From Escherichia coli (GTDB taxonomy: Bacteria; Pseudomonadota; Gammaproteobacteria; Enterobacterales; Enterobacteriaceae): DNA of 64,000 nucleotides. Both the position numbers and the translations under genes were made by a program. Of the stretch, positions 5,887 through 6,244 are shown piece after piece. The stretch's first letter is position 1. Each line of letters begins with the position of its first letter. The stretch is from the NCBI RefSeq assembly GCF_011045215.1, contig NZ_CP049201.1. One strand, given 5' to 3'. The notes beneath the pieces were generated by a model. That model was not told the origin of the DNA, did not search any database, and saw only the letters and a list, made by a program, of their open reading frames with translations.

Positions 5887-5914
5887 TAAAAAGGCGCTGA
5901 ATGGCGCTTTTTTA
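5887..5914. terminator. Bidirectional intrinsic terminator between amiC and the tRNA gene
   Basis: aaaaaGGCGCtgaatgGCGCtttttt: GC stem flanked by A-run and T-run. Confidence 0.55.
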
Positions 5915-5959
5915 TAGGAGACCAGAAACAAAAAAACACCCGCTAGGGTGTTCAATAAT

Positions 5960-6036
5960 TGGTTGCGGGGGCCGGATTTGAACCGACGACCTTCGGGTTA
6001 TGAGCCCGACGAGCTACCAGGCTGCTCCACCCCGCG
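5960..6036 (-). tRNA. metZ: Initiator tRNA-fMet (anticodon CAU), fMet1-type, single copy
   Basis: Reverse complement reads CGCGGGGTGGAGCAGCCTGGTAGCTCGTCGGGCTCATAACCCGAAGGTCGTCGGTTCAAATCCGGCCCCCGCAACCA, 77 nt with CCA end; no second copy found nearby. Which of metZ/W/V it corresponds to cannot be decided. Confidence 0.95.
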
Positions 6037-6244
6037 TCCGTGGATGCGCACTATACTCCGCTCGCGTTTTCATGCAACCTTTTTTTTACCCCGATCACGG
6101 ATCTGGCATGATTTTGAACAAAAACAAATCACTAAAGCCTATTTTTTGTGCAAAATTTGCGTCAGGGAGAGGCTGCTCATTTCATTAAACGCGGTGGTTT
6201 GTTATCTTCGTTGCGCCTTATTTTTTAACCTGAAGAAGAGAACA

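Follow-up and report, generated by a model that had tools for sequence, protein, structure and literature searches.

A 64,000-nucleotide stretch of the Escherichia coli chromosome, referred to here as the window, carries a single initiator tRNA gene at the locus where K-12 has the three-gene metZWV operon. We think it probable that the strain truly has a one-copy form of the operon, produced by deletion between tandem repeats. The one-copy state of metZWV is itself already known: it is a copy-number variant found in hundreds of public genomes, and the effects of its dosage have been tested experimentally. Mildly new is the observation that the initiator array is single-copy about 9 to 15 times as often as two elongator arrays of similar layout, an excess for which a literature search found no published report.

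A single initiator tRNA gene in the amiC-mltA interval

The locus has the gene order recD-argA-amiC-tRNA-mltA-tcdA. The amiC-mltA intergenic region spans exactly positions 5887 to 6244 of the window, with the amiC open reading frame ending at 5886 and the mltA ATG lying at 6245. A preliminary description had placed one 77-nt tRNA-fMet gene in this interval. We scanned the window with ARAGORN and Rfam, which both found that gene and added no further copy in 64 kb: ARAGORN reported a total of one tRNA, a tRNA-Met(CAT), and the Rfam tRNA model (RF00005) matched it with 61.4 bits (gathering score, 29). A search of the whole window that allowed three mismatches found neither a second tRNA 3' half nor a remnant of an inter-tRNA spacer.

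The gene was identical to K-12 metZ, metW and metV at 77 of 77 positions, and its sole difference from K-12 metY was at canonical position 46, G instead of A. Because it has G46 where K-12 metY has A46, the gene is, as read from its sequence, of the fMet1 isoacceptor type (metZ/W/V) and not of the fMet2 type (K-12 metY), and the fMet1 assignment with its characteristic G in the preliminary description was borne out. The anticodon is CAU, with ARAGORN placing cat at position 35. C1 lies opposite A72; Rfam treated this 1:72 pair as nonstandard, and C1 was unpaired in the fold. The anticodon stem, UCGGGCUCAUAACCCGA, formed three consecutive G-C pairs in the fold, GGG with CCC (G29-G31 with C39-C41). 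The 1:72 feature and the three anticodon-stem G-C pairs are the hallmarks of bacterial initiator tRNAs as defined in PMC3017606, and the predicted product of the window gene has both.

In the annotation of K-12 MG1655, metZ, metW and metV lie at 2947387-2947683, between mltA and amiC. The array consists of three identical 77-nt genes and two near-identical 33-nt spacers, the inter-tRNA spacer being AAATTTGATGAAGTAAAAGCAGTACGGTGA. That K-12 has three tandem genes at this locus, as the preliminary description had stated, agrees with both the annotation and our alignment. When the amiC-mltA interval was aligned with that of K-12, the window proved to be K-12 minus exactly two 110-nt units, each made up of a 77-nt tRNA gene and a 33-nt spacer (about 220 nt in all). 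The single gene would then correspond to a fusion of the K-12 metZ, metW and metV copies. The window locus shares with the K-12 operon its position between amiC and mltA, its tRNA sequence, its core promoter and its terminator apart from one loop base, and differs from it in having one gene where K-12 has three in tandem.

The features of the locus are listed in Table 1, together with other features of the window.

Table 1. Features of the tRNA locus and of other parts of the window
Feature	Position	Strand	Basis
amiC 3' untranslated region, with its own GGCGCTGAATGGCGCC-like hairpin and T run	5887-5923	+	read from sequence
Intrinsic terminator: hairpin GAACACCC TAGC GGGTGTTT, then T run	5924-5953	-	terminator scan
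tRNA-fMet, fMet1 type, anticodon CAT	5960-6036	-	ARAGORN; Rfam RF00005
Putative promoter and short leader of the tRNA unit	6037-6077	-	base-for-base identity to K-12 metZWV promoter region
Putative G+C-rich discriminator GCGCATCC	6049-6042	-	read from sequence
Putative -10, TATAGT	6055-6050	-	read from sequence
Putative -35, TTGCAT	6077-6072	-	read from sequence
Remaining part of the divergent intergenic region, next to the mltA start (6245)	6078-6244	.	alignment
mltA-tcdA spacer, REP/BIME-type repeat	7425-7516		Rfam ES036 (CssrF) match above threshold
naRNA4 match just past tcdA	8346-8426		below threshold
IS200-type element, 705 bp	10528-11232	-	
Y1-transposase open reading frame of the element	10631-11140		
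STnc490 match in the element	11099-11222		Rfam
GcvB sRNA gene, full length	11233-11438	-	
CsrB sRNA gene, full length	29619-29978		384 bits
LemA gene and three TPM-domain membrane protein genes	47551-51122		

A strict consensus sigma-70 scan reported no promoter at the window tRNA locus, and we therefore infer promoter function from the identity to K-12. The putative promoter would leave a leader of 4 to 5 nt ahead of the mature tRNA 5' end. Suppressor mutations described in PMC3017606, a G-to-A change just upstream of the -10 element and a T-to-C change inside it, fit the hexamers that we propose. The terminator was the sole terminator-like site in 5800-6300, and it differed from the K-12 terminator after metV by one loop base, TAGC instead of TAAC. 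On the amiC side, the left flank (5887-5923) was collinear with K-12 and with one-copy and two-copy alleles. On the mltA side, the intergenic region beyond the promoter showed two differences from K-12, one near 6102 and one near 6190.

In about a third of E. coli, foreign DNA begins 9 nt past the last initiator tRNA gene (metV). It consists of type VI secretion genes or a PTS/aminotransferase cluster, with the three tRNA genes left on the side of mltA. The one-copy state may be more frequent in island-bearing genomes, the counts for this being loose. The window had no genomic island 3' of its tRNA gene and was collinear with K-12 from the tRNA into amiC.

Copy number, deletion and assembly collapse

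We looked across 5426 complete E. coli genomes to determine how often the array is reduced. A probe for the tRNA-spacer-tRNA junction was present in 5195 of the 5426 and absent from 230, which were annotated with a single tRNA-Met at the site. A direct single-copy probe, the tRNA with 35 nt of flank on either side, was covered in one piece in 212 genomes, a count that takes in island-bearing single-copy genomes (9 + 77 + 35 nt, or 82% coverage). About 212 to 230 of the 5426 genomes (about 4%) had one copy at the locus, roughly 2 to 3% had two, and at least two copies were found in about 96% (95.7%). Two-copy genomes without an island numbered 93 to 165 (at least 93), and GCA_053879715.1 was a further two-copy case. 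Two probe counts of 225 each represent the one-copy plus the two-copy genomes without an island. These counts do not support a large excess of one-copy over two-copy genomes, because the 212 include island-bearing genomes and the 225 mix one-copy and two-copy genomes.

A spread sample of 60 genomes contained 56 with three copies, one with two and three with one, and further NCBI/ENA loci spanning the interval had three copies in 13 of 13 cases. The one-copy allele is thus a minority state but not a rare one, with many instances in the public data. Since two-copy alleles exist too, the size of the metZWV array does change. In all 60 listed single-copy genomes, tRNA-fMet was found at two places genome-wide, the locus itself and metY, with no compensating copy elsewhere.

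The window allele differs in detail from its public counterparts. The public single-copy alleles, among them those of WP9-S17-ESBL-11, J53, LH50-c and EcPNK006, share with it the promoter, the one tRNA gene and the terminator, at 99.3% identity over a 147-nt core. The terminator-loop G and the other flank single-nucleotide differences of the window were present in none of the 60 listed single-copy genomes, all of which were at 99.3%. Two-copy alleles (FDAARGOS_943, IAI39, O157:H7 Z1826 and others) share the locus and its flanks and differ by one extra repeat unit. FDAARGOS_943 has the terminator-loop G in common with the window and is its closest flank haplotype. Because this G occurred in 0 of the 60 listed single-copy genomes, and because FDAARGOS_943 has two copies, the comparison suggests that the one-copy state of the window arose as an independent event on a rare haplotype.

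In the deletion that we favor, the ancestral array would have had three identical 77-nt genes and two near-identical 33-nt spacers, and recombination or replication slippage between identical copies would have removed two of the 110-nt units. The promoter and terminator of K-12 would be left, with one tRNA gene between them. The identity of the tRNA copies hides the crossover point. The one-copy state would presumably be a mutational dead end and persist, re-expansion by unequal exchange being precluded because no repeat is left.

Collapse of an approximately 330-bp array of near-identical 110-nt units during assembly, in a strain that in fact has two or three tandem copies, would yield exactly this sequence, and the sequence alone cannot separate such an artefact from a deletion. 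The window contains no second tandem tRNA array that would betray such a collapse. We consider an artefact unlikely, chiefly on the strength of two control arrays of similar geometry in K-12. glyV-glyX-glyY has the geometry of metZWV, with three identical 76-nt genes and near-identical spacers of 36 and 35 nt, while valU-valX-valY has three identical 76-nt genes and unrelated spacers (44 and 46 nt). When synthetic single-copy versions were searched for, glyVXY gave matches in 14 genomes, with the junction absent in 16, and valUXY gave matches in 26. The single-copy rate was about 4% at metZWV against 0.3 to 0.5% at glyVXY and valUXY, which are thus single-copy about ten times less often, so that generic collapse explains about a tenth of the metZWV cases. 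On the assumption that the three arrays collapse equally, only about 15 to 26 of the approximately 230 metZ calls would be artefacts, and most public single-copy metZ alleles are probably real. From these population controls, the likelihood of an artefact is roughly 10 to 20%.

Three other lines of evidence were set aside. leuQPV was rejected as a control array, its genes not being identical and its spacers being unrelated. Early on, single-copy genomes seemed to group by submitting study, as would be expected of artefacts; the glyVXY and valUXY controls answer this question better. A k=31 Logan contig through the locus was dropped as proof of a single copy, since metY shares the tRNA sequence and breaks the graph anyway.

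Some assemblies do seem prone to collapse. Five of the 60 listed single-copy metZ assemblies (8%) were also single-copy at valUXY or glyVXY, where about 0.3 to 0.5 would be expected by chance. These assemblies are 118UI, Xuzhou21, WP9-S17-ESBL-11, AS19-RrmA- and 2011C-3493 (records NZ_CP032515.1, NC_017906.1, NZ_AP022287.1, NZ_CP027430.1 and NC_018658.1). The pattern points to collapse of tandem tRNA arrays, and not to biology, in these five "complete" records. A single copy is present in O104:H4 2011C-3493 but three in FDAARGOS_349, from the same 2011 outbreak; K-12 J53 has one copy, whereas MG1655 has three. The public single-copy calls for 2011C-3493 and J53 look artefactual. For the window, the two copies of FDAARGOS_943, the closest flank haplotype, also speak for collapse. 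Against it, three copies are normally resolved in draft and complete assemblies alike, as in all 13 of the covering loci mentioned above, and the window crosses an IS200-type element at which a 100%-identical SRR11014969 short-read contig stops. This reading through the element hints at a long-read or hybrid assembly.

It is highly improbable that the single gene is instead an ancestral state, in a rare lineage that always lacked the array while other E. coli reached three copies by duplication: the lineage is indeed unusual (best complete genome, 99.0% over 25 kb, in a comparison made within E. coli) and several of its protein alleles are on record in just one to three contigs, but at least two copies occur in 95.7% of genomes, including K-12, B, O157 and ST131 backgrounds, the sequences on either side of the window gene are base for base those that enclose the three-copy array, the nearest haplotype (FDAARGOS_943) has two copies, and single-copy alleles turn up in unrelated strains, among them K-12 derivatives with a three-copy ancestor. 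Deletion between tandem repeats remains our preferred reading.

Initiator tRNA dosage

The preliminary description had proposed that a collapse to one copy would reduce initiator tRNA gene dosage, which agrees with the experiments of Kapoor et al. 2011 (PMC3017606). In that work, tRNAfMet levels tracked gene copy number and metY did not compensate, and cells low in tRNAfMet were cold-sensitive, grew slightly less well and allowed initiation by noninitiator tRNAs. Strains deleted for all of metZWV grow less well in some conditions (PMC11480407). Published competition experiments showed a trade-off between rich and poor medium for engineered strains, and a 2014 study on initiator tRNA dosage is cited in PMC9981150.

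Laboratory changes in initiator tRNA dosage include the metZWV deletion, promoter-down mutants and gene amplification in Salmonella, where mutants initiating without formylation amplified initiator tRNA genes (mentioned in PMC3017606). The same quantity, the supply of tRNAfMet, is altered in all of them. These cases are full deletions, promoter mutations and amplifications, whereas the window represents a partial reduction, known here from a genome sequence.

With one gene behind the one promoter, each transcript would yield one tRNA instead of three, a third of what the three-gene operon gives. If, as we presume, this strain also has metY, which lies outside the window upstream of rimP-nusA, there would be two initiator tRNA genes rather than four. 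Since tRNAfMet follows gene number in the published work, roughly half of the normal initiator tRNA would be expected. With two of the four genes left, we expect a mild phenotype. The predicted cost in rich medium is small; initiation fidelity may be slightly relaxed, and poor medium may bring an advantage. From the published K-12 work, small effects on growth rate, on cold tolerance and on the strictness of the ribosome for true initiator tRNA would be expected in this strain.

We raise, as a tentative suggestion, that initiator tRNA gene dosage may be a standing, recurrent polymorphism in natural E. coli, either tolerated or favored in particular niches. If so, the one-copy allele of the window would count as an independent instance in a rare lineage, and natural populations would be playing out the trade-off between rich and poor medium described for engineered strains. 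The higher single-copy rate at metZWV than at glyVXY and valUXY is in keeping with a published proposal that a reduced number of initiator tRNA genes can pay in poor environments. For annotation, the findings call for caution: the number of tandem tRNA genes in an assembly may reflect real variation or a collapsed repeat, the two being indistinguishable.

Lineage and other features of the window

In reverse orientation and at 97 to 99% identity, the window was collinear with the part of MG1655 between about 2,953.5 and 2,892.6 kb. Among the 5426 complete E. coli genomes, the best match was 99.0% identical over the first 25 kb. Contigs of SRR11014969 were 100% identical to the window, and GCA_910665095.1 was 99.976% identical over 21 kb. 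The RecD allele of the window was on record only in run SRR11014969, the CsdA allele was rare, and several protein alleles were known from one to three contigs. MltA and ArgA, in contrast, were common alleles, and the loci matching them belonged to unrelated three-copy strains. The Logan contigs of SRR11014969 end at REP and IS sequences without crossing the tRNA locus, and the matches returned by exact-protein look-ups included no independent DNA of the window lineage across amiC-mltA.

The spacer between mltA and tcdA contains a REP/BIME-type repeat, and an naRNA4 match below threshold was found there as well as just past tcdA (Table 1). Short-read contigs of related strains break at this repeat, near 7502.

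K-12 lacks the IS200-type element. It abuts the 3' end of the full-length GcvB sRNA gene in the same orientation, so that it comes immediately after the GcvB terminator.

The LemA gene and the three TPM-domain membrane protein genes take the place of the K-12 yqcG-ygcG segment. The middle paralogue of this segment, of 382 amino acids, had no Pfam hit on record and was found in only three contigs of a large gene index. The CsrB sRNA gene was present at full length, as expected from synteny with K-12.
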